In this document: positions 4,891 through 28,259 of the stretch, piece by piece
Layout: each line of letters starts with the position of its first letter
How positions within the stretch are numbered: position 1 is the first letter of the stretch
Source: an uncultured Clostridium sp.
GTDB lineage: Bacteria > Bacillota > Clostridia > TANB77 > CAG-508
Length of the DNA stretch: 64,000 nucleotides
Direction of reading: 5' to 3'
Assembly: GCA_947571115.1 (NCBI GenBank)
Contig: CANOWW010000003.1
Coordinates: 81,293 to 145,292, forward strand
Translations under genes and position numbers: made by a program
The notes under the pieces: generated by a model
What the model saw: the letters and a program-made list of their open reading frames with translations, nothing else
Databases searched by the model: none
Told to the model about the DNA's origin: nothing

Positions 4891-4901
4891 CCCCCTTCTG
4901 C

Positions 4902-11760: not shown

Positions 11761-11934
11761 TTATAATTCCCATTCCTCTTCATCTTCTGTTTCAATTTCT
11801 TTTCTATTTTTATAATCGAAAATAACTTTTTCATCATACTCAGCTAGATTATAAGCCAATACACTTGCCATAGCTTGTACAATTTGCTCTTCTGTATTTG
11901 GATTGATAAACTTTATATTCAGTTTCTTTTTCAT
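11761..11934 (-). CDS. Small acidic hypothetical protein (57 aa), below the ORF-track cut-off
   Basis: My translation is MKKKLNIKFINPNTEEQIVQAMASVLAYNLAEYDEKVIFDYKNRKEIETEDEEEWEL*. It fits neatly between flanking genes on the same strand. Confidence 0.3.
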   Translation of the reverse strand: MKKKLNIKFINPNTEEQIVQAMASVLAYNLAEYDEKVIFDYKNRKEIETEDEEEWEL

Positions 11935-11993
11935 ATTCTCTTCGCCTTTCCTTTAATTTTATTTTTTAATTTTGAAAATATTACTTAAAAAAA

Positions 11994-12491
11994 CTAATTA
12001 TCGTATAAGGCTTCCCATTCCTCAGTTGTATGATAATCTTCCATAAATGCAAATTTAGTTTGATGAAATGTATCTCTTCTTTCATTCTTTTTATTTTTTA
12101 TTTCTTTAGTAGTGGTTACTGGTTGGTTATTGGATGGTTGATTTCTGGTTACTAACTGGTTAGCTTCATTCCCATCACCTTGCATCTCGTCATAATTTAC
12201 AATTGTTACAATCGTATATTTGTTGGTTGCTTCTACAACAATATCGTTAGTCGATTCTAACTTTTTCAAAGCTGTCCTTACTTTTTGAACTCCCATTTTT
12301 AATTCTTCTGCCAAATGCTCTCTACTAGTTACAATCTGACCTCTTTTAATTGTCATTTCTTCCCATTCTTTGTCCTTAAAATTAGCTTTCACTAATAAAT
12401 GTAAATAAACATCCTTTACATTTTGATCTTGATACCATTGCCAATCAAAAATTCCTCTCGGCAATTTTACCCATCCTTTACTTATATCCAT
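11994..12491 (-). CDS. Phage/plasmid replication-organiser-like wHTH protein
   Basis: 165 aa. GWVKLPRGIFDWQWYQDQNVKDVYLHLLVKANF...RGQIVTSREHLAEELKMGVQKVRTALKKLE resembles the N-terminal wHTH of phage replisome organiser / DnaD-like proteins. Confidence 0.4.
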   Translation of the reverse strand: MDISKGWVKLPRGIFDWQWYQDQNVKDVYLHLLVKANFKDKEWEEMTIKRGQIVTSREHLAEELKMGVQKVRTALKKLESTNDIVVEATNKYTIVTIVNYDEMQGDGNEANQLVTRNQPSNNQPVTTTKEIKNKKNERRDTFHQTKFAFMEDYHTTEEWEALYDN

Positions 12492-12648
12492 AAAACTTTC
12501 TCCCTTCTTAAATAAAAATTTTTAAGCAATAGAAAAAAGCCTAATATAAATTAGACTTTTCCTCGGGAAAATTTTATGTGTTTAAATTTTTAAAATCAAG
12601 GTAAGAAAAATCCAACACTTTTCCATCCCTTCTTTATCAAAAGTAAAT

Positions 12649-12685
12649 AACCTCACATTATAAATATAAAATGTGAGGTTTTTAC
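12649..12685 (-). terminator. Hairpin terminator downstream of the PadR-like gene
   Basis: 10-bp perfect stem aacctcacat / atgtgaggtt with T-rich flanks on both strands. Confidence 0.5.
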
Positions 12686-12712
12686 TAACATTCTATTGAT
12701 TTTTACTATCCA

Positions 12713-13231
12713 TTAATTTTGATCTAATAAAATTTCATTTTTCTCTTCCATAATCCATTCTTTTAAAGCATTTATTACTCTTATTTGTTGTCTAAAAATC
12801 ATTTTATCTGTGTAAGATAAAAAATTTTCATTCTCGAAAAATTTTTGTCTCTTTTTCTCAAGCCCATCTTTTATATAATCAAAATACCTTAGTTGGTCTT
12901 TTTTATTTATAAATTCAAAATTTACAATTAGCTCATTTATATCAATAAAGATATTGGTTTCATAAAGTTTCATTCTATCTTCAAGTATTTTTTGAAAAAA
13001 ATCTATTCCCTTTGATGTAACACTATATACAATAATCTCTCTTCCTTTCTGTTTTCTTTTCTCTCCAATAACATATTCTTTTTCCTGTAATTTTTTAATT
13101 TGCTTATATAAAGTTCCTAAGTTAAAGTGAATTACTTTATGAATATTTTTATTTTTCAAATTTCTTCTCATTTCTCCAATATGTTGTGATTTTCTCTTTA
13201 GTTCCCCTAATATTATTAAATCCAAACTCAT
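12713..13231 (-). CDS. PadR-family transcriptional regulator
   Basis: 172 aa. N-terminal wHTH pattern ILGELKRKSQHIGEMRRNL...LYKQIKKLQEKEYV and a C-terminal coiled extension. Confidence 0.55.
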   Translation of the reverse strand: MSLDLIILGELKRKSQHIGEMRRNLKNKNIHKVIHFNLGTLYKQIKKLQEKEYVIGEKRKQKGREIIVYSVTSKGIDFFQKILEDRMKLYETNIFIDINELIVNFEFINKKDQLRYFDYIKDGLEKKRQKFFENENFLSYTDKMIFRQQIRVINALKEWIMEEKNEILLDQN

Positions 13232-13274
13232 ACAAAATCCTTTCTAAGTACTAATATTTATTAACTATGAGAGT

Positions 13275-13586
13275 TTATACTTTCATTATTTTTTTTAATA
13301 ATTCTGCATTTTCATCTTTTAATAGGAATTGTCTAATGCCATAAAAAGAAGGTTTTATTGAACTCGGAGTGCAACCATATTCTTTTGCTAAAGTAGTATA
13401 TGTATATATTTGTTCTTGATTTATATCTAAATTGTAATATTTAATGAATCTATCTTTTTGCTTTTCCGTTTTATCAGAATTATTAATCATTTCAAATAAT
13501 ATATTTTTTTGTTTATTTGACAATTGATTTGCTCTTGCTATATCTAATGTTTTATCTACTATTTCAACTTTTTCTCTTGGTTTCAT
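13275..13586 (-). CDS. Small HTH protein (sigma-70 region-4-like)
   Basis: 103 aa. The segment LSNKQKNILFEM...TTLAKEYGCTPSSIKPSFYGIRQFL resembles a region-4 HTH. It is divergent from the XRE genes. Confidence 0.35.
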   Translation of the reverse strand: MKPREKVEIVDKTLDIARANQLSNKQKNILFEMINNSDKTEKQKDRFIKYYNLDINQEQIYTYTTLAKEYGCTPSSIKPSFYGIRQFLLKDENAELLKKIMKV

Positions 13587-13793
13587 TAAGCTACCTCCTT
13601 ACTACATTAATTGCTGTCTTACCATTTAGCAGTATTTTTACTCAACAAAATCTCACCTCCTCTTTTTATATTTTTAAATCGTTATTTCCATAGATTTATC
13701 AAGATTTTACAAAGAAGAAATAATTTTCCTTACTCAATTGTTTATGGAAATGAGCATGAATATTTTGTAATATATCTATGGAGAATAGTATAG

Positions 13794-14075
13794 ATGGAGG
13801 TGTATAATATTAATAAAAAATATAAAAATGAAACTCGTGAAAATTTAGCAAATAATATTCTATCTATGCGATATGAACGAGATTGGAGTCAAGAGAAATT
13901 AGCTGAATTAGCACATTCTAGCGCTGTGTATATCAGTAACATTGAGCAGGGCAAAAGGAATGTTTCAATTGATTTTATAGATAATATTGCTAAAATATTC
14001 GGAGTACCAACTTATAAAATGTTAATAGAAAACCCTAAGATTCAGAACAGAGGCAGAGTAGATAGCAAAAAATAG
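13794..14075 (+). CDS. XRE-family HTH regulator
   Basis: 93 aa. WSQEKLAELAHSSAVYISNIEQGKRNVSIDFIDNIAKIFGV is a canonical Cro/CI HTH. Confidence 0.75.
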   Translation: MEVYNINKKYKNETRENLANNILSMRYERDWSQEKLAELAHSSAVYISNIEQGKRNVSIDFIDNIAKIFGVPTYKMLIENPKIQNRGRVDSKK

Positions 14076-14244
14076 TTGCAGTATTTTTTGCTGTTTTTTA
14101 TAGGCATTATTCTATTAAAATACAAAATTCTCCATCCATATGAAAGTATATTATATTCTGTATGCAAAGTCAAGATTGGTAATAGATTATTAACTTCCTT
14201 TCTGTACAAAGATAAAATAATATATAGTAAAGGAGAAGTTTTTT

Positions 14245-14607
14245 ATGGTAAAATATGAAATAGATTATAAATCAGTCGGAGAAAGAATAAAGAATTCTCG
14301 AATTAGCAAAAATATAACACAAGATAAGTTAGCTGAACTCATTGATATAAATCCAAGTCATTTAAGTAATATTGAAAGAGGAAAGACAAAAATGAGTACA
14401 GATACTCTTGCAAACATTGCAAGAAGCTTGAATATTTCAATAGATTATTTGCTTTTTGGTGATGTAACTTTAGAATATAATCAATTCACAAATATAGCTT
14501 TTTTAGAGATTCAAGAGATGTTGGGAAATAAAAATAAAGATGAAGTTAATGCTTTTATAACTTTTTGCAAAAATTTTATTGACCTTTTACCTCAAATACG
14601 CAAATAA
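14245..14607 (+). CDS. XRE-family HTH regulator
   Basis: 120 aa. ITQDKLAELIDINPSHLSNIERGKTKMSTDTLANIARSLNISIDYLL. Confidence 0.75.
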   Translation: MVKYEIDYKSVGERIKNSRISKNITQDKLAELIDINPSHLSNIERGKTKMSTDTLANIARSLNISIDYLLFGDVTLEYNQFTNIAFLEIQEMLGNKNKDEVNAFITFCKNFIDLLPQIRK

Positions 14608-14625
14608 TAGATAAATTGAAATCAA

Positions 14626-14658
14626 GGAAGTAAAGAATTTTTTTACTTCCTTAATTTT
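14626..14658 (+). terminator. Rho-independent terminator after the second XRE gene
   Basis: 9-bp stem ggaagtaaa / tttacttcc followed by ttaatttt. Confidence 0.7.
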
Positions 14659-14678
14659 GCCTTTTAATTCTATAAAAG

Positions 14679-14732
14679 GCAGGATAAGCACGAGTCGTCC
14701 TCGTGCTGAAACTCACAAACAGCAAGCTGTTT
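14679..14732 (+). repeat. Inverted-repeat unit A flanking the ParB-like gene
   Basis: GCAGGATAAGCAC, then a hairpin (gcacgag..ctcgtgc), then the 16-bp near-palindrome AAACAGCAAGCTGTTT. Mirrored at 16014-16067. Confidence 0.8.
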
Positions 14733-14794
14733 GGAATTAGTTATCTTATAAGATTCTAACTCATTTTTAACCCAAAGTACACTTCGGTGTACTT

Positions 14795-15844
14795 TCAACT
14801 ATTTTTATTTTCTAACGCATTTAATATTGTTCTTTTTATCATTTTTTTATTTTTAAAATCATCAAAGAAAGGTTCTAATTCAAATTCATCAAATAAAATA
14901 CTAATTTTCTTTGATAAGTTGCTGTTAGTAAAGATTTCTTCTATTTTCTCTTTTGTTAAATATTCATTATAAGATTTTTCTTTCATCCTTTTGGCTTGAG
15001 ACTCGTTAATTTTTGCATTCTTAAATTTGATGTAATTAGCAATTATATTTTGTTCTTCTTTTCTCAAAAATGATAAATGTTCTGCAATTTTCAAATTAAT
15101 TATTCCATTATCTATTGCCTCTTGCAAGTCCTGATTCAAATAATTAATTCTCAAATACCTTTGAATATTTCCATTAGACACGCTATTTTCTTTCATAATC
15201 GCTTTTCTGATATTCAAATCTCTTTGATTATCATTCATAATATCCTTATCAACTTTTTCTTTTAATTTCTCATCTTTCAAAGCCTGCTTTCTCATTAAGT
15301 AAGCTTTTGCCCTCTCTGTTGGTTTTATTATTGCTCTAGATGTAAGATTCGTATCTACTAAATATAGTTTTGCTTCATCATCTGTTTTTTCTCTCACATA
15401 ACAAGGAAATTCGGTTAATCCAATATTTCTTCCACATTTTCTTCTCCTGTGCCCTGACAAAATCTGATATTTCCCTTGATATGGTCTTACAATAATTGGC
15501 TCAATAATTCCATTTACTCTGATTGAATCTTCTAACTCCTTATTATCCTCTTCATTATCCGTACGAAATGGCTGATTTTCATAATCAATTAGTTCCTCAT
15601 CTTTCAAAAAAAGTAAATTGTGTTGATTTGCATTTTCTGTGGCTATCTCATTATCTGCATAAATCTTGTCTATATCACTTTCTATTAAAATCTGATTGTC
15701 CATCATTTCCAATGCTTCTTCTTTTGTTTTTCCTTCTCTTTTCCATTGTTTTACAATTTCCAATACCTCATCCAACTTTGCCTCTCTAATAATCCTACTT
15801 ATGTGTGGATTTTCCTTGTAAATTTTTTCATCTTCATTTCCCAT
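14795..15844 (-). CDS. ParB/Srx-like nuclease-domain protein
   Basis: 349 aa. ParB N-terminal domain motif GIIEPIIVRPYQGKYQILSGHRRRKCG. Confidence 0.7.
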   Translation of the reverse strand: MGNEDEKIYKENPHISRIIREAKLDEVLEIVKQWKREGKTKEEALEMMDNQILIESDIDKIYADNEIATENANQHNLLFLKDEELIDYENQPFRTDNEEDNKELEDSIRVNGIIEPIIVRPYQGKYQILSGHRRRKCGRNIGLTEFPCYVREKTDDEAKLYLVDTNLTSRAIIKPTERAKAYLMRKQALKDEKLKEKVDKDIMNDNQRDLNIRKAIMKENSVSNGNIQRYLRINYLNQDLQEAIDNGIINLKIAEHLSFLRKEEQNIIANYIKFKNAKINESQAKRMKEKSYNEYLTKEKIEEIFTNSNLSKKISILFDEFELEPFFDDFKNKKMIKRTILNALENKNS

Positions 15845-16013
15845 AAAAATAACTCCTTTTCAATAAATTTACAATTTTCATTGTTGGAGCTATTGTATTC
15901 TTTTTCATTTTTTAAGTAAAAGTAAGAAGAATCCTAAACCCTATATTTTTACTTTATCAAAAAAATTGGAGTAACTTGTAAATAAGTTGTTCATTCTTCA
16001 TTTGAGTTATTCT

Positions 16014-16067
16014 AAACAGCTCGCTGTTTATGTGTCTTATCACAAATGTAAGTTGTGCTTATCCTGC
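16014..16067 (-). repeat. Inverted-repeat unit B flanking the ParB-like gene
   Basis: The minus strand reads GCAGGATAAGCAC, then a different hairpin (cacaa..ttgtg), then AAACAGCGAGCTGTTT. The 13-nt end matches unit A perfectly. Confidence 0.8.
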
Positions 16068-16113
16068 GTTTAATCAATTTCAAACTTCGCAAGAATTTTC
16101 TTATACAAAAATA

Positions 16114-17565
16114 TTAATAAAATAAGTTTTCTTTCATTTCAATAACTTTTTTAGTTATTTTTTCGAATTTGTATACAGAAGCAAAGATTACTTGATGCTC
16201 ACCAAAATCTCTTTCCAAAATTTTTAACATTGCTGTAGAATTATCATCAGTTAACTCACTTGTTCTTGGAGAGTCAATTATCAATGGTAATATTAATCCA
16301 TATTTTCTCTTTATTTCAAGCACATAAGCTATTTTAAAAGTAAAAGCCATTTGTGTTAAAATTCTACCAGTCTTTCCCTTTAGCTGATTAGTTAGTACAA
16401 AATTTTGATTATCTTTAATATACTTGTCAAACTCTAATTCTTTAGCATATTTTTCAATAGTCTCATATATAGATACTAAATACTTATTGTTATTTGAAAG
16501 AACAGCATGTAACTCTTCTACTAATTTTTGTTTTCTTCTAGTCAACTGCCCTATTATTTTATCAATTTGCTTTTCATTTATGTTGACAGTTTGCAACATT
16601 TCATCAACTTCATCTGCAACAGTTTTTACATTAAATAAAAGATTTCGATTATTTATCTCATTTTCAATTTTACTTATTTCATTATTTATTTTAGCTAAAG
16701 TTATTTCTAATTCTCTTTTTCTTGTTTCATAAAAAATTTGATTTTCATTATAATTCAAAATATTACTTTTAGATAATTTTATCGAATTCTCTTCAGAAAT
16801 TTTTACATAAATATCTAATCTTTCAAGATATTCAACTATTTTTTTATTATCCAATAAAATTATATTTACATCCTTAATATCCTTTTTGACTTCAACTGCT
16901 CTCATTTTTAACAAGTTAATTTTGCTATATAATTCATTATCCTGATTTTTTGTGTAAGATGTTGTTTCTTCAATCATATTTTCACTTTTGTATTCGGCTA
17001 TAGTTTTTAATGTTCTATATTTTCTTATCTCATCTTCAATCTTTTTGATTTCATCGTTAATTGATGTAACATCCTTTTCTGATAATGCTGAAATAAAATC
17101 TTCTATATTAAATCTATTTTTTCCTATTATAATTCCTCTATTTAAAAGAGTCCAGCCTTTTTCTTGATCAATATAGAAAATTGCTAATAAATTATTTAAT
17201 ATCATAATATCATTTATATCAAATATTTCAGCATGTAATTCATTTATCTGTTCTGGCATTACATATGTTATTTTTTCATCTTTAATACAAAAATATATTA
17301 TATCTCCATGCCTTTCAATTTTATATACTTGTGAGTTTTTAGTATATTCTATTAATATATAAAAATCATCAAATGTTTTAATTCCGTCCGTTGCTGGTAT
17401 ATTATAACCAAATCCATATAATATGGCTCTTAATAATGTTGTCTTTCCTTTTGAATTATCTTTACTGTATATCAAATTAATTTTATCATCAAATATAAAT
17501 TCTCTTTTTGCATCTTTCCATTGAATAATAACTTTTTTAATTTTCATATTGACTAGCCCTTTCAA
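16114..17565 (-). CDS. SMC/ABC-like coiled-coil ATPase, LmuB-like
   Basis: 483 aa. N-terminal P-loop INLIYSKDNSKGKTTLLRAIL, a long coiled-coil middle and a C-terminal Walker-B-like LPLIIDSPRTSEL. Its start overlaps the upstream gene by 29 nt. Confidence 0.5.
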   Translation of the reverse strand: MKGLVNMKIKKVIIQWKDAKREFIFDDKINLIYSKDNSKGKTTLLRAILYGFGYNIPATDGIKTFDDFYILIEYTKNSQVYKIERHGDIIYFCIKDEKITYVMPEQINELHAEIFDINDIMILNNLLAIFYIDQEKGWTLLNRGIIIGKNRFNIEDFISALSEKDVTSINDEIKKIEDEIRKYRTLKTIAEYKSENMIEETTSYTKNQDNELYSKINLLKMRAVEVKKDIKDVNIILLDNKKIVEYLERLDIYVKISEENSIKLSKSNILNYNENQIFYETRKRELEITLAKINNEISKIENEINNRNLLFNVKTVADEVDEMLQTVNINEKQIDKIIGQLTRRKQKLVEELHAVLSNNNKYLVSIYETIEKYAKELEFDKYIKDNQNFVLTNQLKGKTGRILTQMAFTFKIAYVLEIKRKYGLILPLIIDSPRTSELTDDNSTAMLKILERDFGEHQVIFASVYKFEKITKKVIEMKENLFY

Positions 17566-18562
17566 ACATTTGCATTATATTTCTTTTTCTTATGAATATC
17601 CTTTTTGCTATAATTTTTGAACAAGCTTTTTCTATAGTTTCCATATTATCATTTTTATTATTTTCAAAAACTATATCATATATCTCATTTTCATATTGAA
17701 TAATAAAAGTATTACTTTTTATATTTTGTATATTGTTTTTAACTTTTTCTATTAAATTGCTTATCCTATTATATGTTTTAAAATCAGCTTCTTTATAATT
17801 AATTATTTTGTCATATTTATCTAATGCCTCAAAAAAATCTTCTTCCTCTATTTCCATGTTATCATCATACTTTATTGAGTTGCTATCACCTAACTTTAGT
17901 ATTAAAAGTCTCCATAAAACATCTTCTCTTTTTATTTTTAGTTTCAGATTATTTTGAGTTGAATTATGATAAGCCTCCGATTCTAGCATTTCTAAAAATC
18001 TATTCTTATACTGTAATAAATCTGAACTAATAAAGGTTAAAAAGTCATCAAGTTTTGCAATTATATATTTTTGTCTAGTATCTTTGTCTTCACTAAAAAA
18101 AGGTACTTTGGCAATTACTAATTTATCTTTGTCGATATTATTTTTTAACTTTTTAAGTTGATCATCTATTTTTTCTTTTGATGCTTCTGATAGCTCATTA
18201 TATCTAAGAAAAGATAGTAATTCAAATTCATTCGTTCCAGAATTCAATGGATTAGGTTCTAAATTGCTTATATATATTAGACTTTCAGAATCATTATCAT
18301 TTACATCTGATAATGATTCTAAAGCCTCTTTTAACTTTGTTGAATATGAACTTGTATCTCCATTATTAACATTCTGCTTTGATTTTGCTTGAGCATAAAT
18401 CTTCCTATTGTTATTTAATAATATTTCAATATCCTCTTTTTCTCCTTCTATTTTCATCTCTTCGAATTTTCCAAAATATTTAATCATTAAATATATAGCC
18501 ATATTAATTTGAAATTGCCAACCAAAGGCACTTGCACTAGCATTTCTATTCTTATTATTCAT
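17537..18562 (-). CDS. Cap4/DUF4297-type nuclease-domain protein, LmuA-like
   Basis: 341 aa. The N-terminus GWQFQINMAIYLMIKYF...MKIEGEKEDIEILLNNNRKIYAQAKSK fits the PD-(D/E)xK pattern of Cap4-type dsDNA endonuclease domains. Confidence 0.45.
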   Translation of the reverse strand: MNNKNRNASASAFGWQFQINMAIYLMIKYFGKFEEMKIEGEKEDIEILLNNNRKIYAQAKSKQNVNNGDTSSYSTKLKEALESLSDVNDNDSESLIYISNLEPNPLNSGTNEFELLSFLRYNELSEASKEKIDDQLKKLKNNIDKDKLVIAKVPFFSEDKDTRQKYIIAKLDDFLTFISSDLLQYKNRFLEMLESEAYHNSTQNNLKLKIKREDVLWRLLILKLGDSNSIKYDDNMEIEEEDFFEALDKYDKIINYKEADFKTYNRISNLIEKVKNNIQNIKSNTFIIQYENEIYDIVFENNKNDNMETIEKACSKIIAKRIFIRKRNIMQMFERASQYEN

Positions 18563-18728
18563 TATCTTTCCTCTTTTACTATCAAAAATTTAATTTTAAC
18601 AATTAATGTATATTTTCCAAAATTTCTACAATCAAACTATTCTAATTTACTAGCACTATATCATATTTTCATCAAAAAATAAAGTATTTCAAGCATATTT
18701 TTGCTCAAAATACTCTTTATTCTACCTT

Positions 18729-18796
18729 ATCACCAACCCCAACCTCACAACCGGATTCCTCTCTGCCAAGAAAATCTTCCTAATCTCAATACTTTC
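18729..18796. repeat. Copy 1 of a 68-bp direct repeat of the element's right-end sequence
   Basis: 62 of 68 nt are identical to 23037-23104. The minus strand encodes ...ESIEIRKIFLAERNPVVRLGLVIR*. Confidence 0.85.
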
Positions 18797-18841
18797 CAAC
18801 AATATTCTATTTTCTTTGCAATCTTTACATTCTTTCATTTA

Positions 18842-19243
18842 CTAGCATTCCTTCTTAAAATTTACCCATTCGCCCCAATATTCTCTTGTCATAAATCGAT
18901 TAATTTGTTCCCAATGCGGTAAATCTATCATTAGAATAACTTTATTAAAGATTTCTTCATTATATTTCGAATTACAAATAAAATCATCTTTCATCCCCTG
19001 TGGCACAGTAAAATTTCCAACATACAACAAGTCTAAAATAGCTCTTATATGGTTAGCAACATTATATTTTTCAGTATGCTCAGGAATGGCCTTATTTTTC
19101 TCAATTCCATAATCGCCCCATAATGAATTATCCGATTCTAATATATGTGGCTTTTCCCATTGAATTCCACTTGCATGCCAATCTCCACAAGTTTCTAAAC
19201 TACATGGAATATTTAAAGCATGAATTAATGATATATATTTCAT
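18842..19243 (-). CDS. Hypothetical protein
   Basis: Likely start at MKYISL, with RBS AGGAG 6 nt upstream. 133 aa, Trp/His-rich, no family recognised. Confidence 0.45.
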   Translation of the reverse strand: MKYISLIHALNIPCSLETCGDWHASGIQWEKPHILESDNSLWGDYGIEKNKAIPEHTEKYNVANHIRAILDLLYVGNFTVPQGMKDDFICNSKYNEEIFNKVILMIDLPHWEQINRFMTREYWGEWVNFKKEC

Positions 19244-19388
19244 TTTTTCTCCTATCTTATATTTAAAATAACATAAATACACTAATTTTACAAATATTGA
19301 TTTTCTAATAATGGTTTATTTGAAAATTTTATTTCAATGCATATAATCACGTGGACAAAATCAGATAGATTTCGTCTACGATTCACTT

Positions 19389-20688
19389 TCAAATCAAAAA
19401 TGTCGCATATAACGGTACAGACTTTATATTATTCTCAAACCCAAAATTCTTGGTTGAAATTCTAATCCCATATTTCGGTTTATTCTCTCTCATATATATA
19501 TTTAAACTAGTTGATTTTACATTACTTCCACTTTTTACCTCCACTGGTATAATTCCATCCTCATTATATAGGATAAAATCCACTTCAGCATTTCTTCCAT
19601 ATGTCCAATAATATAAGGATGTATCTTTCGATATAAATTCCTGTGCAATATAATTTTCCGTAATTGCCCCTTTAAATGCAAACGGTCTTTCTAACATAAT
19701 ATCTGGATATTTGATTTCTGAAATTGATGTTAATAATCCTACATCACTTAAATACAATTTAAACATATTCTCATCTACATAAACTTTTAGCGGTATTTCA
19801 GGCCTTTTTATTTTGTAACTTGCTAAAACCATTCCACTTGATACTAGCCATTCAATCGGTGTTTCATATTTCCTTTTTCTACCTTCTTCATCAATTAAAT
19901 GATATCGAAATGTTTTTTTATCTTTCGCCAATTGACTTGGTATATTTTTATATACCTTTTCAATCTTTACAGACTCAATATTACTTTTTACATATTTCTT
20001 CATATCTGCAATATACATCTCAATAATATTGGATGTTATCTGCGAATCATATTTTAAGATATCCATATCATTTTCTATAAAATTATTGACTGACTCTGGC
20101 ATCCCTCCCACGCATAAATATTGCTTATACAAGGTAAGTGCTTGCTCATGCGCAAAAGAAGGCATTGCCTCCATATTAGAATAACACTCTTTTATTTTCT
20201 CTAATAACATTTCTTTTCCAGTAGCCATTAAAAACTCTTCAAAATTCATTGGATACATATATTCCATTCTTATTTTTCCAACCGGAAATGAACTATTAAA
20301 TCGATTTATTTTTACTCCCAACAAACTACCAGCACATACAATTTTATATGGTCTTACCGATTCATTAAAATACTTAAGCGAAACAATAAAATTTTCACTT
20401 ACCTGAACTTCATCAAAAAATAATAACGTTTTGTCTAAATCTATCTTTTTACCAATATACAATTCAAGTTCTTCCAATATTTTTTCTTCATCAATCGTTT
20501 TTTCAAAAATATCTCTTATTTCTTTATCTTTTTCCAAATTAAAATATAGATAATCTTCAAAATTTTCTCTTCCAAACTTATCAATTGTATAAGTTTTACC
20601 AATTTGTCTTACTCCGAATTACCATTAATGGCTTTTGCATTCCAGATTCTTTCCAATCTAATAATTTCTTTTCAAATAATCGAATCAT
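19389..20688 (-). CDS. AAA ATPase with DUF4143-type C-terminus (COG1373-like); intact only with a +1 shift at the in-frame CGG 20614-20616, otherwise a pseudogene
   Basis: The upstream frame reads MIRLFEKKLLDWKESGMQKPLMVI-CGG. The +1 frame continues GVRQIGKTYTIDKFGRENFEDYLYFNLEKDKE... The paralogue at 54372-55694 has KPLILKGVRQSGKTWLL at the same place. Confidence 0.65.
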
Positions 20689-20883
20689 TCCAATTTCCCC
20701 CTATTTATTCTATTATTATCATAAAACAAAAAAATAGTCAACATTTTTGCCACTTTTTGTATTGTTTTTTGGAGTGATTTTGCCACTTTTTGCATATATC
20801 TTTCAGAAGTATTTGCCATAATTAGCTTCAGTATAACCGAATTTCTTTTTAAATTAAAATAGCATTAAATTCATTTATAGAAC

Positions 20884-21840
20884 CTAATGCTTTATTTTTA
20901 TATTATCTAATGTTCTTCTTAATCCTCGATATTTACCATTTACTGATATATCTGCAAAATTAGTTAAACCTATTATACTATTTTTGCTATGTAAATCTAT
21001 TTCCTTTTTTCTCACAAATTTAGTTTGACTTTTTATTTTGGATTTTATCTTATTAGGTATTACTAATTTATTGTTTGGAGAAATTACAAAACCTGTTACT
21101 TTCTTATATTCATTCACCCCATATCGTATAGTCTTTCCTTTACTTAAATTCTGTTTATGTTTTCTTATAATATTTTTTATTTCACTTTCTTCTTTTTGCG
21201 TAATATATCTATTTTCCGATGATACTGTTATATCATCTACATATATTGTACATTGTAGCTTATGTTTGTTAGTATATTCTATAATCTCATCAAACATATC
21301 TATATTCGCCAGATATGATAAAATTTGACTGGTTGGTGTTCCTGATGGCAAATGGTTAGTATTTTTTATTTTTTTCAATTTTAAAAATTCATATACTCCG
21401 TCTTCTATTTCTACATTTTTTTGTTCATAATTAACTGTAACTATATCTGTACAAATTGATGCAACATCCGAGCTCATTTTTAGTTTATTTTTAAAAAATT
21501 CATATAGTCTATTTCTGTGTGTGTTTGGAAAAAATTTACTCATATCTAACTTTAACATATATTTACAGTCAATATGATATATGGCATTACCAAATGCAGA
21601 CCTACCTTTAATTCCTGAAAATACATACTCTGGAAATTTTAATTGATATAATTTATTCAATATAATTCTTTGTATTTTTTTCAATTCTTCACTAGGCTTT
21701 TCTAATAATCTCTTTCCATCCTTTACACAAACCTTATATTTGTATAATACATCATTTATTTTTGCTTCATCTACATATAACAATGCATATAAATCTCTTT
21801 TTCTTTTGATTTTATATAATTCGCACTCTTTATAATTCAT
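20884..21840 (-). CDS. Retron-type reverse transcriptase
   Basis: 318 aa. RT motifs LPSGTPTSQILSYLANIDM and YVDDITVS, plus the retron-typical VTG motif (YKKVTGFVIS) near the C-terminus. Confidence 0.8.
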   Translation of the reverse strand: MNYKECELYKIKRKRDLYALLYVDEAKINDVLYKYKVCVKDGKRLLEKPSEELKKIQRIILNKLYQLKFPEYVFSGIKGRSAFGNAIYHIDCKYMLKLDMSKFFPNTHRNRLYEFFKNKLKMSSDVASICTDIVTVNYEQKNVEIEDGVYEFLKLKKIKNTNHLPSGTPTSQILSYLANIDMFDEIIEYTNKHKLQCTIYVDDITVSSENRYITQKEESEIKNIIRKHKQNLSKGKTIRYGVNEYKKVTGFVISPNNKLVIPNKIKSKIKSQTKFVRKKEIDLHSKNSIIGLTNFADISVNGKYRGLRRTLDNIKIKH

Positions 21841-21900
21841 TTTCTCTTTTCCTTTTATAAATAGACTTTTTCAAATCTATTTATAAAAAGAAAAGTTTAA

Positions 21901-22095
21901 TTAGTTTTTAGTGAAAAATTTAATAGTAAATTCTATACTGTCTTTCGTCTTTTTGATAATAAGTTTAGCTTTTACTATAATTCCAAAACCTATAATAAAC
22001 TTAGCTAAATTCATTACAAATTCTTCACTATAACCACAAGCTTTCCCAACTAACATTACTAAAACTACAAAAACAAATTGTTTTGGAATCTTCAT
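21901..22095 (-). CDS. Small two-helix membrane protein between the candidate retron RNA and the RT
   Basis: 64 aa. Hydrophobic segments FVFVVLVMLVG and FIIGFGIIV. Strong RBS AAGGAGG 10 nt upstream of the ATG. Confidence 0.5.
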   Translation of the reverse strand: MKIPKQFVFVVLVMLVGKACGYSEEFVMNLAKFIIGFGIIVKAKLIIKKTKDSIEFTIKFFTKN

Positions 22096-22145
22096 AATCG
22101 TTACACCTCCTTTTTTATAGATTAGAACTTATTTAATATAAAATA

Positions 22146-22450
22146 AGCGCCCCTCTATTTTCTAACCTTAGAAAGTGTACAGCTTGTTTGTGGTTCCTAA
22201 TTAAATTTCTGGGAGAGCCCCTCACAGGACAAGATATAAATAATCATCACCTTATATAGATTATTATTTATATGTCTTTTATTGCTTATATACTTTATAG
22301 TCCTGATAATGCTCTCTTTTGTGTTTAAGTCTATCTATAATATATTAATCTATAGCTAGTCCAAACAAAAATATGCGGAAAATACTTTTACAAGTATTTT
22401 CTTCACTATTTCTAGCCAAAATGGGGCTAAATTTCGAGCCTCGTTGAGAA
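22146..22450 (-). ncRNA. Candidate retron msr/msd non-coding RNA
   Basis: It lies downstream of a consensus promoter and upstream of the RT. A 10-bp hairpin sits at 22378-22401. A long composite stem spans 22211-22316 (gggagagc/gctctc, caggac/gtcctg, AT-rich inner stem). A possible a1/a2 pairing is GCCCCAUUUU (22418-22427) with AAAAUAGAGGGGC (22149-22161), with GG directly 3' of a1. Confidence 0.4.
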
Positions 22451-22457
22451 TAATTAC

Positions 22458-22486
22458 ATTATATATTGCATAATTTAAAATGTCAA
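22458..22486 (-). promoter_or_regulatory. Consensus sigma-A promoter driving the retron region
   Basis: Minus strand reads TTGACA, a 17-nt spacer, then TATAAT, both hexamers perfect. Confidence 0.65.
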
Positions 22487-23036
22487 TATTCAATAAATTA
22501 AATTTTTATTATTTTTTAATCATTACTATTCTTATAGTAATAGATTTTAATTTTGATTCAAAAAATCAAAAATTATATTCGTAGGCAACCGTTTCTCAAA
22601 ATGAACAATAAATTTCATTTTGAGATTTACAAAAAGCACAATACTTTTTTTCAATCACTTTAGCCCCAATAGACACCGTCGGTCATTCGCCTCGTTTCAT
22701 AGATAGTCTAATAAGTATCTCATTGATACTATAATTGCTAATTACTTATATCGTAATCTTTGTTCATCCTTGTCCAAACTTTTTACAATTATAAATCCAC
22801 ATCCAAGTTTTGCCTCCGAATACTCTTTTATTATTGTGAGCCTATGTTCAAAAATCTCACTTACGCACTTTACATTAATAGACTGTTAACGTTTATACGG
22901 ATTGATTTTATAGCATCGGCTCATCACACCTATCACTTTTATAGAGTTTGTGGCATTTCTCTTTTCAATAAAAAAAGAAGCTTGTATTTTATTCTTACAA
23001 ACTTCTTTCTCATTATCCTATTCAATTATTTATCTA

Positions 23037-23104
23037 ATCACCAACCCAAACCTCACAACCGGATTCTTCTCCGCCAAGAAAACTTTCTTAATCTCAATAC
23101 TTTC
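23037..23104. repeat. Copy 2 of the 68-bp direct repeat (at the true right end of the element)
   Basis: See 18729-18796. Here it is fused in frame to the spoIIID 5' segment (…ESIEIKKVFLAEKNPVVRFGLVIR*). Confidence 0.85.
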
Positions 23105-23142
23105 TGGAAATATTTGACTTTCTCTCCAACCGTTCTTTTGTG

Positions 23143-23158
23143 TTACATCCATATGTAC
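23143..23158. other. attR-type junction core
   Basis: TTACATCCATATGTAC. To its left, CCAACCGTTCT (23126-23136) is the inverted partner of AGAACGGTCGG (5069-5079). Together they would form a symmetric attP after excision. Confidence 0.65.
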
Positions 23159-23354
23159 TGTACTTTTACTGATTCCAAATCTCTTTGCTGCTCCTCGTAC
23201 AGTATCCTTTGTATCTATTATATATTGAGCAAGTTTAATTGCTCTTTCTTCAATTGACATTCCCTTCATTCTGATAACCCCCAAACAAATACATTTGCTT
23301 AATTGTATTCGTTTAAAAGTTGTCTTAGAACTATCTCTTTTTCACTTCAACACT

Positions 23355-23927
23355 TTATTCGTAATCCTCTAAAATGGCACTTAATTTTCCTTCTCCAAAA
23401 ACTGGAATTCCCTCCTCCAATTTGCCAATATCCTCTTCTGGCAAATAGTCCTTTGAAATGTCTGTCGCCTGATATTGATTCAGCTCCCCTAAAGTTCCCA
23501 CTCGATAAATATTGACCAAATCATTATCCAACTTAATCAAAAAATGCTGATTACAATAGCCATCAATTTCCTTTGTCAAAACCAATTGGTCCTTTGCAAA
23601 CTTCTCTACTTCCCAGCCTGCATAATATTCCTCCACTTCTTCCTGCGTTAGATTGACAAGTTCGTGTGGAAGTTCCGCTTCCTCATAATCAAAATGACTG
23701 CATTCATCATAATATTTTTTTAGCGCAAATGTTGCATTGGGAGAAACTTTTTCCTCTGAACTCGCCGTTGTAACAACTGTATTCTCTTTTTCTGGAACAT
23801 TTTGCACTTCGTTTGCCGCCTTCGCCTCACTTATATTCGGCGTTCTCTTTAACACTCCCACAATGCCCCCTATCACTGCTGCAATCAAAACTACTAAAAT
23901 TACAATATAAAGATATTCTTTTCTCAT
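23355..23927 (-). CDS. BofC-like sporulation protein (membrane-anchored)
   Basis: Likely start at MRKEYLY with an N-terminal TM. YYAGWEVEKFAKDQLVLTKEIDG and LDNDLVNIYRVG...LPEEDIGKLEEGIPV...LEDYE resemble the two BofC domains. Confidence 0.45.
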   Translation of the reverse strand: MRKEYLYIVILVVLIAAVIGGIVGVLKRTPNISEAKAANEVQNVPEKENTVVTTASSEEKVSPNATFALKKYYDECSHFDYEEAELPHELVNLTQEEVEEYYAGWEVEKFAKDQLVLTKEIDGYCNQHFLIKLDNDLVNIYRVGTLGELNQYQATDISKDYLPEEDIGKLEEGIPVFGEGKLSAILEDYE

Positions 23928-23968
23928 AATACTCACCTTCGCTAGTATTATGGGCAAATTTTGGCAAA

Positions 23969-24466
23969 TTATACAAAATAATTACTAATTTCTTCTAATC
24001 CCTTAAATTCACATTGTCTAAAAATATCATACGCCACAATCGCAACTGAATTTGACAAATTCAGCGAACGCAACCCCTCTTTCATAGGAATTCGCATTGT
24101 TTTATCTATGTATTTTTGCAAAATATCTTCTGGTAAACCTTTGGTTTCCTTTCCAAAAAGAATAAAAACTTCATCTAATGTGGAATAATCAAAATCAGAA
24201 TAAACCTGTTTTCCCTTTGTCGTCACAAAAAACATATTTTTCTCTTCTGGCTGATATTTCTTTAAAAAAGCCTCAAAATTCAAATGCTCCTCGATTTCCA
24301 ATTTGTCCCAATAGTCCAAACCTGCCCTTTTTACTTGCTTTTCCGAAATCGAAAATCCCAGCGGATACACCAAATGTAACTTTGCCCCTAACGCTGCACA
24401 AGTTCTTGCAATATTTCCTGTATTTTGTGGAATTTCAGGCTCCACCAGCACAATATGTAATTTCAT
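23969..24466 (-). CDS. trmL: SpoU/TrmL-type tRNA 2'-O-methyltransferase
   Basis: Likely start MKLHIVLVEPEIPQNTGNIARTCAALGAKLHLV. C-terminal SLNLSNSVAIVAYD is the SPOUT knot motif. Confidence 0.8.
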   Translation of the reverse strand: MKLHIVLVEPEIPQNTGNIARTCAALGAKLHLVYPLGFSISEKQVKRAGLDYWDKLEIEEHLNFEAFLKKYQPEEKNMFFVTTKGKQVYSDFDYSTLDEVFILFGKETKGLPEDILQKYIDKTMRIPMKEGLRSLNLSNSVAIVAYDIFRQCEFKGLEEISNYFV

Positions 24467-24507
24467 TTCTTCTCCTTTTCTATGTAACAAGGACGTTTTT
24501 CACGCCC

Positions 24508-25282
24508 CTACAAGTCCCCCAAACGATAATAATAAGATTTTACCCCGTTTAGCAAACTTTCCACATATATCTGATTTTTATTTTCCTCTTCAATAATCAT
24601 ATTCGGATAATTAATCAGTATTTTTTCATTGTCATAATAATCGTTAATCAAACCAGCCAAATCGTCGCTTTTTTCTATTTGAGCATATTTTTCTTGAACT
24701 TGTGCTTTATTCGTAATATTCAAATTTTTCTCAGTCGCAATTCTGTAATAAAACACTTTCAAAGTATACGCTGTCAACACGGCATCTAAGCAAAAAAAGG
24801 CAACCAATAAGCCAACGCCAACTTTAAAACCATTTTTCTTTGGTTGCATTTTTTCAATCCATTTGTCCACAAAAGGGTTCACATACTTGATTAAAAAAAT
24901 CGCCAAAACGCCCCATGAAACTGCAAAAAACAAACATGTTCTTCCCTGAATATTGACTAAATAGTCAGAATAATCCCACCATTTGATACCAAACATTTTC
25001 TCACAAACAAAACTCATCAAATATTCCACAATTGCTCCGCAAAATCGCACCACCAAAAAATAATTTGACATTACTTTTTTCGCCTCGCAAAGCCAAAATC
25101 ATCACAATGGCACCAATTCCATAAATCGCACAAAATGGCCCATACAGAAAACTTTTTCTGCTCTCTAAAACCCCTTTTGTAAATAATCCAAACACAGTTT
25201 CTATGAAAAAACCTGCGATGCTATACAAAATCAAATACATAAAAATGGTCCAAATATCAATCTTTTTTACCGTTTTTTCCAT
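24508..25282 (-). CDS. COG4905-like polytopic membrane protein; intact only with a +1 shift at CGG 25037-25039
   Basis: The upstream frame ends ...FFGGAIL-CGG. The +1 frame continues GAIVEYLMSFVCEKMFGIKWWDYS, which matches the paralogue at 52723-53433 (…LIEYIAG…LWDYS). Confidence 0.6.
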
Positions 25283-25342
25283 ACACGAACACTCCTTTTG
25301 CCTTATTGTTCCAATTTGGCAAAAAAATATTCATGTTTGTTT

Positions 25343-25918
25343 CTAAATACAATGATTTTCTTTCAAAATTTCATAAACGCGATGAATTGGAAGCCCCAAA
25401 ACAGCCGGATAATCCCCATCTATTCTCTCAATAAACACCGCAAAAACGCCTTGTATCGCGTACGCTCCCGCACAAAAATAAGGTTTCTCTGTATCCACAT
25501 AATCCTCAATTTCCAAATCTGTCATTCGTTTCACGTAAACTGTATTTTGTGAAAGTTCCTTATAAACTTTAGTTTGTCCATTTTTCTGGATTAAAACTGC
25601 GATGCTTGTAAAAATTTTATGTGACTTTCCTTGAATTGTTTTTAGCATCTTAATAGCTTCTTCCCTCGATTTTGCTTTCCCAAATTTCTTCCCATCAACA
25701 ATCACTAGCGTATCTGAGCCAATCACACATCGGTCTCCAGCAGTTTTATCAAAAACCTCTTTCGCCTTTCCATAAGCAATTTCTTTGGACTGTTCTTCTA
25801 AGCTCAATGTACTATCCACTTTTTCGTCAAAATCGCTTACTATTACCTCATATGGAATTTTCGCCTGTTTCATCAAATCTTGTCTTCTTGGCGAACCCGA
25901 CGCTAAAATTATTTTCAT
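25343..25918 (-). CDS. maf: Maf nucleoside-triphosphate pyrophosphatase
   Basis: 191 aa. MKIILASGSPRRQDLM...GSDTLV...GAYAIQG. Confidence 0.9.
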   Translation of the reverse strand: MKIILASGSPRRQDLMKQAKIPYEVIVSDFDEKVDSTLSLEEQSKEIAYGKAKEVFDKTAGDRCVIGSDTLVIVDGKKFGKAKSREEAIKMLKTIQGKSHKIFTSIAVLIQKNGQTKVYKELSQNTVYVKRMTDLEIEDYVDTEKPYFCAGAYAIQGVFAVFIERIDGDYPAVLGLPIHRVYEILKENHCI

Positions 25919-25928
25919 CCTTCCTCCT

Positions 25929-28259
25929 CTATTTATAAATCACTTTTATACTTTCCACACGATACATAATCGAATAACCTGGCGCCACCTTACTAATTGT
26001 AACAATTGGTTTCAAAATTCTTTGATTATCTGGAACAACAACTTCAATTGTCTGTTCCTTTTTTTGCCCCATTGCGTTCAAAATAACATTTTTGGAAACA
26101 GAAAAATTCGAGCTTCCATCTTCAACACCAATTTCAAAAGTACCAACTGTTTCATTCATCCCAGCATGATGGCCATGTTGCGTATCTGATATCGTAATCA
26201 ACAATTTTGAAACTTGCGCCCCTGATGCCATAGAATTCAGCTTTGATGTAGTCATCGTATCTGTTACCACAGACCCATTTTGCGGAAATACTTTATACCC
26301 TTGTGATACTGGCAAAGCATTGGTTTTGTAAGTGTCAATTCTCTCTTTTGCAATTCCAATATACGCCGCTGTCTGTTTAGCGACGTCGTCGCTTCCACCT
26401 TTTTTTAAACTTTTAACTTTTTCATAATAGTCGGTTTCGTCCTTTTTGTCAAACAAACTTCTTTCATAATAATTGCCTGTATTAATACAAGTATAACAAG
26501 CTAAATTTCTATGGTCATAGCTATATTCTGTGGAAGCAGGCTTCAAAACTTTATCAAACTTTACTTCTTTTGATTTAAAACTCATAAATTTATCACTTGT
26601 GGCATTCCAAACAGGGCAATCAATCCTATGGTAATCTGACTTTGTATCATTAAATTTATCACTTTCTACATAATAAATTTCGCTTGGCGTAACTGTTAAT
26701 TCGTTGTTCGTACTACAAACCATCTGATAATCATTATAAATATTCAATCCACAATTCCAACCTTGCATAAAGGAAACAATGGAAACATTGCTCAAAATTT
26801 TGTCCCACTCTTCCTCCTCTAACACTGGCAAACTAAAATTATAAGAAGTATTCATAGTATTGGTATAAGCCGAAATCGCCAAATTCAAATTATACTTAAT
26901 CGAATTTTTAATAACTTCCAATTTATGAATATAAAAGTTTGATTTTTCATCTTCTGGATCTTGACCAGCATCAAAAATCTTTCTATCATCTGTGTCTTTA
27001 AATTCATAATAAATACTTGTTTCTACACCAGAAGAAAATTCATAACTATCAATTGAGTCAATTTGCTGGATATTTCCATAGGTCAAATCGCCCAAATATT
27101 CGTAAACCCAATTTGAAAAAATTTGTGAACTAATATAATAAGCCACCGCCTTGCAATTTTGAATTTCATATTCGATTTCATTAATGGCACTTAGTAAACC
27201 AGCTGTTGCTGGATTTTTGCCTTCATCATATTCCTCATACATCTTTTCCAAATATACTTCTGCATCTTTGATTGTCTTAATTTCTACATTATATTTTGCA
27301 TGTAAAGCATCTGCTACCCTTCCAAAATCAGAATTTATCGTTCGACCATTAACCTTAACACTTGCGTTTTGGGCTGCAATAATGGTCTCTTCATCTGCCA
27401 CCTTTTTCAACCCTAAAATTTTATTTTTGGCATCATCTTCATTTAAAGCCCAAATGTCGCTATCGTTAACACCATCAATATGAGGTTGCTCTACCAAATC
27501 TTTTTTTATTAAATAACCAGTTTTCGTGTAATAAATATCATTAATTGTCCCTACAATGTTCAAATAATTATCTAATGTATAATTAATCGTCACATCTTTG
27601 TTCCCCTGTACATACCTGCCTGAATATTGCACATACGATTTCAAAATATACGAATCCTTTTCTTCTTTTGGCTTGGCATTCTCACGATGAATCGTATATT
27701 TTCTGCCACCACTTTTGGTCTCATCTGCTTCAAATAAAATATCTCCATAAACAGCTGTGTCTGCTCCTTCTATTTCAGTATCTGGTATGATTTGAGCGCC
27801 TGTTGTTTTATCTATTTCACCATAAAATTGATACCCCTCTGTTTTGATTAAACCACTACTTTCCTCTGTCGTTTTTTGAGCCACAACTGGCACTTGCGTA
27901 GGTGCATAAATATAGTAGCCGTCATACAACGTATACAAAACTGCTGGGATATAAGGTTGCAACAATTGCCTACTGGCATTTGACATTCCTAAACTGGTTG
28001 CCAATGTATCCAAAAACACGTTATTAGACGCTTCGATAATGCTTCTCATAGAATCTGCCACGCTTGACAAATCCTCATTGGCTGTATTCATCTCGAAAGC
28101 AGACATAGCACTATAAGTAGCTGTCAATAATTTCGTATTATATTGATTTTCAGTCGCAATCGTATCCACCTGCAAATGAATATAAAAAGTAACCACTAAT
28201 ATAATTGGCAATAAAATAATTGCTAGTACAACTGCTAAACCATCTACTTTCATAATCAT
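25929..28259 (-). CDS. Large N-terminally anchored extracellular protein, last gene of the Tad-like locus (possible tip or accessory pilin)
   Basis: 776 aa with a single N-terminal hydrophobic helix LAVVLAIILLPIILVVTFYI. The rest is hydrophilic and Tyr/Asn-rich. Confidence 0.5.
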   Translation of the reverse strand: MIMKVDGLAVVLAIILLPIILVVTFYIHLQVDTIATENQYNTKLLTATYSAMSAFEMNTANEDLSSVADSMRSIIEASNNVFLDTLATSLGMSNASRQLLQPYIPAVLYTLYDGYYIYAPTQVPVVAQKTTEESSGLIKTEGYQFYGEIDKTTGAQIIPDTEIEGADTAVYGDILFEADETKSGGRKYTIHRENAKPKEEKDSYILKSYVQYSGRYVQGNKDVTINYTLDNYLNIVGTINDIYYTKTGYLIKKDLVEQPHIDGVNDSDIWALNEDDAKNKILGLKKVADEETIIAAQNASVKVNGRTINSDFGRVADALHAKYNVEIKTIKDAEVYLEKMYEEYDEGKNPATAGLLSAINEIEYEIQNCKAVAYYISSQIFSNWVYEYLGDLTYGNIQQIDSIDSYEFSSGVETSIYYEFKDTDDRKIFDAGQDPEDEKSNFYIHKLEVIKNSIKYNLNLAISAYTNTMNTSYNFSLPVLEEEEWDKILSNVSIVSFMQGWNCGLNIYNDYQMVCSTNNELTVTPSEIYYVESDKFNDTKSDYHRIDCPVWNATSDKFMSFKSKEVKFDKVLKPASTEYSYDHRNLACYTCINTGNYYERSLFDKKDETDYYEKVKSLKKGGSDDVAKQTAAYIGIAKERIDTYKTNALPVSQGYKVFPQNGSVVTDTMTTSKLNSMASGAQVSKLLITISDTQHGHHAGMNETVGTFEIGVEDGSSNFSVSKNVILNAMGQKKEQTIEVVVPDNQRILKPIVTISKVAPGYSIMYRVESIKVIYK

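Follow-up and report, generated by a model that had tools for sequence, protein, structure and literature searches.

A type VI-lineage retron without a helix-turn-helix gene, with a predicted hybrid RNA and a small candidate effector, in a Clostridium of the mouse gut

The locus analysed here lies in a 64,000-nt stretch of DNA from an uncultured Clostridium sp. of the mouse gut (contig CANOWW010000003.1, positions 81,293 to 145,292; hereafter the window, whose own numbering is used throughout). It comprises a sigma-70-type promoter, a structured RNA region, an open reading frame (ORF) for a small protein (SP) of 64 amino acids (aa) and the gene for a 318-aa reverse transcriptase (RT), and all these features, like every retron feature of the window, are on the minus strand. 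We consider it likely that together they form a type VI-lineage retron that is self-contained and directed against phages, with one promoter, one hybrid RNA, SP and RT, and without the helix-turn-helix (HTH) gene that the two studied members of this type need.

The RT gene (20884..21840) was classified by profile searches. Its best PADLOC profile was RT_VI, matching residues 7-295 with an E-value of 1.4e-61 against 4e-34 for the runner-up retron type; in bits, RT_VI reached 206 and the other PADLOC retron types at most 116, a margin of 90 bits. This match places the protein in the type VI RT lineage, clade 3 of Mestre 2020. The Pfam match was RVT_1, the NCBIfam models matching at meaningful scores were retron RT models only, and 10 of 10 PDB sequence relatives were retron RTs. 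The YVDD, LPSGTPTSQ and VTG motifs, already pointed out in the original prediction, are all located in the ORF 21840-20884 (aa 200-203, 164-172 and 248-250, respectively) together with NAIYH at aa 85-89, so that YxDD, NAxxH and VTG, the signatures of a retron RT, are all present; the residues of the YVDD, NAxxH and VTG motifs show no variation across 16 homologues. By profile and PDB matches the RT thus groups with retron RTs and not with those of Abi systems, group II introns or diversity-generating retroelements, in agreement with the retron identity first proposed. To judge from its sequence, the locus is a genuine retron and belongs to type VI, a kind described before.

Homologues of the RT numbered 259 at E <= 1e-10, and 62 RT-encoding loci were retrieved from metagenome-assembled genomes (MAGs) and metagenomes. 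Clade A consists of Clostridia MAGs with RT identities of 54-94%, clade B of Bacilli or Tenericutes-labelled MAGs with identities of 41-45%; in the viral contigs searched, the only RT found was an irrelevant one at 28% identity. Each locus with sufficient upstream sequence carries a small ORF of 49-81 aa whose stop codon precedes the RT start by 23-80 nt (60 nt in the window), with no ORF between the two. When the flanking ORFs of 39 loci from the two RT clades, down to ~43% identity, were compared all-against-all, the small ORF and the RT alone proved to be conserved and the flanks varied. The unit therefore appears to consist of promoter, RNA, SP and RT, and the effector is most likely the 64-aa SP, as in the type VI systems described below, and not the downstream ATPase.

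The original prediction had named the downstream DUF4143 ATPase and the gene after it among the effector candidates. Such a reading, in which the DUF4143/PDC-S01 ATPase or the 146-aa protein would be the effector and SP an accessory or a membrane anchor, agrees with the position of both genes, directly downstream on the same strand, and with their matches to defence-gene models. However, neither gene is kept beside homologous RTs in the 39-locus comparison, on which ground the ATPase was rejected as effector; a terminator-like hairpin with a T-rich tail closes the RT gene (20861..20891, the sole terminator-like site in 20500-23000); and PDC-S01, which PADLOC lists as a candidate system of a single gene, is frame-interrupted in the window. 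We regard this explanation as highly improbable, and the ATPase and the 146-aa gene look, by sequence and conservation, like defence-island neighbours that are no components of the retron.

The succession of RNA, small protein and RT had also been called an unusual layout, but non-coding RNA (ncRNA), small protein, HTH where present, and RT is the characteristic type VI operon (10.1101/2025.10.22.683967; 10.64898/2026.04.27.721009). The order ncRNA, SP, HTH, RT is given alike by Mestre 2020, Zhang/Shipman 2025 (10.1101/2025.10.22.683967) and Garcia-Rodriguez/Toro 2026 (10.64898/2026.04.27.721009), the SP gene being followed by the HTH gene and then by the retron RT (10.1101/2025.10.22.683967), and the small protein is a toxic effector embedded within the retron RNA (10.1101/2025.10.22.683967; 10.64898/2026.04.27.721009). 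In the window, the SP gene likewise lies between ncRNA and RT, inside the predicted retron transcript.

What is truly atypical, and had been passed over, is the HTH gene. No gene for a Cro/C1-type HTH (cluster 2_1) lies just upstream of the RT gene or overlaps it, the only HTH near the retron being the broken 5' half of spoIIID, and SP itself has no HTH-family match in PADLOC, Pfam or NCBIfam. The fetched flanks of the 39 loci contain no conserved HTH ORF either, with the exception of four clade B loci. As a positive control, plasmid relatives from Staphylococcus and Aeromonas, at ~30% RT identity, carry an HTH gene that directly adjoins the RT. By these sequence comparisons, the one atypical feature of the window retron and of about 60 relatives is that they have no HTH gene. 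Among type VI entries ~78% encode an HTH and ~22% are without one, this remainder not being described (10.64898/2026.04.27.721009). The locus represents no new kind of retron: its order is the normal one of type VI, of which it is a new HTH-less variant.

The gene for an HTH partner could lie elsewhere, whether on the chromosome or upstream of the promoter; the locus would then be a canonical three-protein type VI retron with one gene relocated. The four clade B loci (L018, L019, L052 and L055) give this idea some substance, in that the RT is preceded in each, at a distance of ~700-940 nt, by a 79-aa ORF for an XRE-type HTH, which has the same orientation and lies just before the RNA promoter. 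However, these four share one genomic context, and about 35 others have no conserved HTH ORF in the fetched flanks; moreover, the HTH of the canonical relatives abuts or overlaps the RT, and the window offers nothing nearer than half of a spoIIID gene. A relocated HTH therefore seems to us distinctly unlikely.

The promoter (22458..22486) matches the TTGACA-17-TATAAT consensus at 12 of 12 positions, with a predicted transcription start near 22451. It is the sole 12/12 match in 20500-23000, where ~19 weaker matches occur by chance, for which reason conservation is the stronger argument: in all related loci examined, the -35/-10 pair precedes the motif ACGAGGCTCGA by a fixed 16-17 nt, and in a 16-sequence clade A alignment the 5' motif ACGAGGCUCGA keeps a constant spacing to it. 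The perfect promoter first reported at this place is therefore both present and conserved. From here to SP, ~360 nt contain no credible ORF. The 612-nt stretch 22452-21841 folds better than its shuffled versions (z = -5.0, with 0 of 20 shuffles as good), which confirms the highly structured non-coding region proposed upstream of the RT, and we predict a hybrid RNA (21846..22451), similar to the hyRNA of known type VI systems, in which an msr/msd-like non-coding part would be followed by the coding sequence of SP and by a hairpin at the 3' end.

To document the structure by covariation, we scored 81 pairs in 11 helices on the 16-sequence clade A alignment, with controls in which the partners were slid by 1-3 columns. 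Paired cells amounted to 90.1% over the 81 pairs, compared with 42-56% in the slid controls, and 22 of the 81 pairs were double-changed, compared with 3-10; none of 500 shuffles reached the observed values. A covariance model built on the 3' RNA block found exactly one copy in the window and recovered held-out relatives; members of clades A and B are among the loci it finds. The structured region is thus conserved, with covariation, beside homologous RTs. Clade B follows the same RNA plan as clade A with different sequences, at ~43% RT identity.

The predicted transcript also appears to be represented in RNA sequencing data. In metatranscriptome X28, a 493-nt contig with a depth of 27.3 spans 21949-22430, that is the RNA and most of SP, and the RT is covered by one contig with a depth of 3.4; in X31, from the same study, 21949-22205 has a depth of 8.4 and the RT 0. 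The part comprising RNA and SP hence outnumbers the RT mRNA in two metatranscriptomes, which fits an abundant hybrid RNA.

In order from its 5' side, the RNA contains a C-run (see below) and a short GCUA/UAGU hairpin (22405..22416), which is 100% paired, with compensatory changes in 2 of 4 pairs (helix 3); in clade B a covarying stem-loop lies just upstream of the C-run. There follows the hairpin GAAAAUAC/GUAUUUUC (22378..22401), changed on both sides in 5 of 8 pairs (helix 4), so that the 10-bp hairpin of the original prediction is both present and covarying. A second msr-like stem-loop (22323..22366) is predicted when the window and most of its clade A relatives are folded as single sequences. 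The long hairpin (22213..22316), previously noticed as a nested stem of ~105 nt at 22211-22316, is closed by pairing of GAGAGC (22316-22311) with GCUCUC (22218-22213) and is the candidate msd, the template of the msDNA (multicopy single-stranded DNA) stem. It forms in every clade A locus folded and is variable in length and sequence, the surrounding variable region measuring 103-226 nt and differing in sequence; from the 5' motif to the SP start the distance is 266-408 nt across loci.

Downstream of the long hairpin, the RNA appears to fold around the SP gene. An element that we call IR1 (inverted repeat 1), UUAAUUAG (22197..22204), invariant in the 16 clade A sequences, pairs across the SP gene with IR2, CUAAUUAA (21897..21904), which overlaps the SP stop codon; in clade B the counterpart is AAUUGUUAAUUAU:AUAAUUAACAAUU, in which L047 shows a compensatory change. 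The strong ribosome-binding site of the SP ORF (AAGGAGGTG; element GGAGGUGUA, 22102..22110), whose GGAGG is invariant in 22 of 22 sequences, pairs with an anti-Shine-Dalgarno strand, UACACUUUC (22171..22179), in a 9-bp helix. This helix (helix 6) is paired in 97.9% of cells with 2 double-changed pairs, corresponds to AUAUCUCC:GGAGGUAU in clade B and is the only helix retained when RNAalifold is run on clades A and B together. Within the SP coding sequence itself, 22081-22091 and 21978-21988 form a covarying 11-bp helix (helix 10), in which seven sequences are double-changed at each of two positions. Finally, a hairpin between SP and RT (21846..21895; helix 11) has 23-nt arms, the 3' one holding the RT ribosome-binding site AAGGAAAAG; its 19 pairs are paired in 93.4% of cells, with 5 double-changed, and its clade B counterpart is followed by a U7 tract and is terminator-like. 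Both the anti-Shine-Dalgarno pairing and the SP-RT hairpin are conserved.

Three short repeats run through this structure. The C-run X, AGCCCC (22423..22428), is complementary to two G-run repeats, namely Y1, GAGGGGCUC (22215..22223), at the 3' base of the long hairpin, and its direct repeat Y2, GAGGGGCGC (22147..22155), in the arm that sequesters the SP ribosome-binding site. GAGGGGC occurs in both copies at near-constant positions in all loci, complementary to the 5' GCCCC; in all loci of both clades Y1 lies at -126 to -154 from the SP start, and Y2 at -59 to -85. Short direct repeats in msd and riboregulator arms are thus found together with the sequestered ribosome-binding site. The three elements change in step across loci, reading GCCCC / GGGGC / GGGGC, UCCCCUU / AAGGGAC / AAGGGGCC or CUCCCUU / AAGGGAG / AAGGGAG for X, Y1 and Y2. 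Part of the a1/a2 pairing first proposed, with X as a1 and Y2 as a2, thereby stands: the GCCCC at 22427-22423 is indeed complementary to the GGGGC at 22153-22149, and the two vary together. The second G-run, at 22221-22217, fits equally well or better, and RNAalifold pairs the C-run with Y1 where the first assignment had paired it with Y2, so that a2 and the branching G as then assigned are one of at least two equally good options. An all-against-all enumeration of helices on the alignment did not settle a1/a2, the sequence being AU- and GU-rich and giving too many spurious stacks. A local UAGCC...GGCUA hairpin considered for the C-run was rejected, as it is not kept in the L010 group, where the GCUA/UAGU hairpin and the long-range complementarity are kept.

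A further repeat was observed in the same RNA. The 11-nt sequence AUAGUGAAGAA is present twice, at 22409-22399 in the 5' RNA block and at 22031-22021 in the SP coding sequence, both copies being highly conserved, and UUCACUA near the 3' end of SP (21915-21909) is able to pair with either of them; these elements may constitute a second set of alternative pairings.

The SP gene (21901..22095), conserved directly upstream of the RT, encodes a basic two-helix protein and probable toxic effector. The ORF is intact in all loci, with indels in multiples of 3 only, and none of the family's 43 clusters has a name or a Pfam domain. In the AlphaFold2 model (pLDDT 76.6) residues 5-20 and 24-63 are helical; the protein has a net charge of +7 and two hydrophobic segments, the best 19-residue Kyte-Doolittle mean being 1.68. 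The ORF, the hydrophobic segments and the two helices of the 64-aa membrane protein originally proposed are thereby supported, the helices by modelling; with a Kyte-Doolittle mean of only 1.68, its location in the membrane is possible. With the small proteins of the known type VI clusters cl2075, cl2760, cl3272 and cl3897 and of the Vpa2 type, SP agrees in general features only, that is in being small and helical with a hydrophobic segment.

Two type VI retrons have been studied experimentally. In Retron-Vpa2 of Vibrio parahaemolyticus, msr-msd and the SP coding sequence make up a single abundant hybrid RNA, with direct repeats in the msd and riboregulator loops; SP is a toxin whose ribosome-binding site is sequestered, msDNA derepresses its translation, the cDNA of the msd copy of the repeat being proposed to pair with the riboregulator copy, and HTH represses reverse transcription, its mutation being toxic (10.1101/2025.10.22.683967). 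In Retron-Sen3, SP is a toxin that is made constitutively and HTH is its protein antitoxin, so that control is post-translational; the RNA contains a long stem with a variable centre (SL3), an IR1-IR2 pairing that flanks SP and, within the SP coding sequence, base pairs that covary (10.64898/2026.04.27.721009).

Compared with Retron-Vpa2, the window retron has the same order of RNA, SP and RT, a predicted hybrid RNA, the SP ribosome-binding site in a stem, a 3' end that pairs back across SP, short direct repeats in msd and riboregulator arms, and an SP that is small, helical and partly hydrophobic; it differs in having no HTH, in the hairpin over the RT ribosome-binding site after SP, in its gut Clostridia host and in an SP with no detectable similarity to anything named. 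With Retron-Sen3 and the cl2075 lineage it shares an ncRNA ending within ~280-400 nt of the SP start, a long stem-loop with a non-conserved centre (the variable long hairpin corresponds to SL3), the SP ribosome-binding site in a basal stem, an IR1 that follows the long stem, an IR2 located at the SP stop or beyond it, covarying pairs in the SP coding sequence, a two-helix SP model and, in clade B, a stem-loop that closely precedes the 5' repeat, whereas the HTH antitoxin is absent from the window and the RT is only distantly related.

The canonical type VI loci of Staphylococcus, Enterococcus and Aeromonas plasmids (e.g., NZ_CP118062.1, NZ_CP022182.1) encode RTs 30-32% identical over 95% of the length. 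Like the window, the Staphylococcus haemolyticus locus has an upstream RNA triad, UCCCCU / GGAGGGGAC / UGAGGGGUG, and a 47-aa SP; unlike the window, the canonical plasmid loci have an HTH gene of 99-103 aa abutting or overlapping the RT start. The 47-aa SP ORF, which lies between RNA and HTH of the S. haemolyticus plasmid NZ_CP118062.1 (L064:1479-1622), is unannotated in the PLSDB gene table. With the classical retrons Ec86/Eco1 and St85/Sen2, the locus has in common the NAxxH and VTG motifs of the RT and an upstream structured RNA whose long hairpin is a possible msDNA template. In the classical retrons, by contrast, the RNA is separate from the effector gene, a large effector protein is encoded after or before the RT, and msDNA is the antitoxin; no Rfam family matches the window RNA, the sole match in a scan of 18000-26000 being a chance Thr-leader far under threshold.

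Retron-Sen3 suggests that SP might be made constitutively here too and be neutralised post-translationally by the RT or the RNA. This would accord with the abundance of RNA over the SP gene in the metatranscriptomes, but the neutraliser of Retron-Sen3 is the HTH, absent here, and the covarying helix in which the SP ribosome-binding site is paired speaks for control of translation. We consider constitutive synthesis unlikely.

Another explanation is that the locus is a decaying type VI remnant that lost its HTH and is no longer functional. Decay does occur among the relatives, one of which (L005) is missing the 5' RNA, and in the L010 group the RT is frameshift-split. In the window, however, both ORFs are intact, the catalytic motifs of the RT are invariant and the helices are kept by compensatory changes; the architecture persists in two clades, to 43% RT identity and in dozens of contexts, and the RNA is expressed. 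A dead remnant is thus very unlikely. As for L005 itself, SP and RT are both retained in the region L005:3300-4950, but the promoter is gone, as is all RNA between the 5' block and the anti-Shine-Dalgarno strand, these two included; a tRNA gene's 3' end occupies the place of the missing RNA, and the covariance model finds nothing there. L005 is either a dead remnant or carries an SP gene with an unsequestered ribosome-binding site.

Several observations weigh against our interpretation of the locus as a functional HTH-less type VI system. Loss of HTH is toxic in both of the type VI retrons studied, and a viable system without it needs some difference; it follows that an HTH-less lineage must restrain SP or RT in another way. 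SP has no family match in PADLOC, Pfam or NCBIfam, and a Foldseek search of its model against the PDB returned nothing better than E = 3.5. Its variability by codon position (0.33/0.24/0.33) shows no third-position bias, which may reflect the constraint of the overlapping RNA. The RNA sequencing evidence consists of assembled contigs of related strains (88-95% identity) and carries no strand information. No depth anomaly was seen over the hairpin in contigs of DNA metagenomes, where a depth of 5-9x in assembled contigs is insufficient to argue that msDNA is absent. Each of the two X:Y pairings conflicts with further supported helices, which it crosses or with which it competes. Finally, the 3'-block covariance model misses the canonical plasmid type VI RNAs and also the distant loci L058 and L060, for which reason homology of the RNA to that of canonical type VI retrons is argued from shared architecture and motifs alone.

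Turning to the surroundings, the contigs of related strains differ in how far they follow the window upstream of the retron. Among contigs identical to it over the retron, upstream identity ends at ~22504 and 22485 in the DNA runs X1 and X4, ~20 nt above the -35 box; in the runs X2 and X3 the match goes on past this boundary. Apparently, the cassette occupies different upstream contexts in related strains.

Its neighbours are of the defence type, with PDC-S01, PDC-M46A/B, a match to an AbiEi model and a Schlafen-like ATPase. The defence island proper spans 10278-19282 on the minus strand and includes genes for a Schlafen/AlbA_2-HATPase_c_4 protein (10278-11684), a PadR-like regulator (12713-13231), a ParB_N protein (14795-15844), the PDC-M46B and PDC-M46A pair with similarity to Lamassu LmuB (16114-18562) and the 146-aa protein that matches the PADLOC 'AbiEi' model (18842-19282). 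A spoIIID-like gene, in the window regions 4800-4964 and 23030-23284, is split around it: the 5' part runs to ...SKSTVHMDVTQ at 23284-23150 and the 3' part (...RLLDINYTLAMEVRKVLDENKAERHIRGGMATKLKY) lies near 4964-4800, also on the minus strand. The ~18 kb between the halves begins with a large serine recombinase (5047-6597; Resolvase, Recombinase and Zn_ribbon domains), an arrangement that would fit a skin-like element excised at sporulation.

The ATPase gene next to the retron (start at 20688; 20688-20592, minus strand) is broken at a CGG, in 'AUU CGG AGU' at ~20619-20611, and skipping of a C restores ...PLMVI-GVRQIGKTY with an intact Walker A motif. The same kind of break is found in the RT of L010 and L011 (both at 4196-4300) and L041 (2696-2800), with 'AAA CGG' at the conserved FSGVK|G(K/R)SA, and is likewise repaired by a one-C skip; diverged members of this group all keep the CGG interruption and are otherwise intact. 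In-frame CGG accounts for 2 of 508 Arg codons in window ORFs of at least 250 aa. From these sequences, decay looks a less fitting account of the interruptions than programmed +1 frameshifting at a hungry codon.

If, by analogy with Retron-Vpa2 and Retron-Sen3, the HTH-less retron operates as the known type VI systems do, SP would be a toxic effector that is not translated as long as sequestration of its ribosome-binding site lasts. The RT would copy the long hairpin into msDNA, chiefly when phage recombination proteins or RecBCD inhibitors let msDNA accumulate. The Y1 cDNA (...GCCCC...) would then pair with Y2 in the sequestering arm, the SP ribosome-binding site would open, and the SP made would stop growth of the infected cell. 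We infer that the element between SP and RT, an RT-limiting hairpin in clade A or a terminator in clade B, may replace HTH as the brake on reverse transcription. More tentatively, since we hold this to be possible but not probable, the locus could represent a minimal type VI system in which toxin control is wholly RNA-based and neither an antitoxin nor a repressor protein is required: RT synthesis would be throttled by the hairpin or terminator that precedes its gene, the C-run and the Y1 cDNA would compete for Y2 to switch SP translation, and the HTH of Retron-Vpa2 and Retron-Sen3 would be a later addition and no part of the core.

Only in type VI, among the retron types, does msDNA turn the toxin on instead of holding it off. 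Annotation pipelines whose rules demand both RT and HTH may miss loci such as this one as type VI systems. The compactness of the cassette, ~1.6 kb, lends it to study and engineering. The studies of 2025-2026 disagree on the HTH, which is a repressor of reverse transcription in one and a protein antitoxin in the other, and a widespread, conserved lineage without it is a natural experiment on which parts of the mechanism reside in the RNA and the RT alone.

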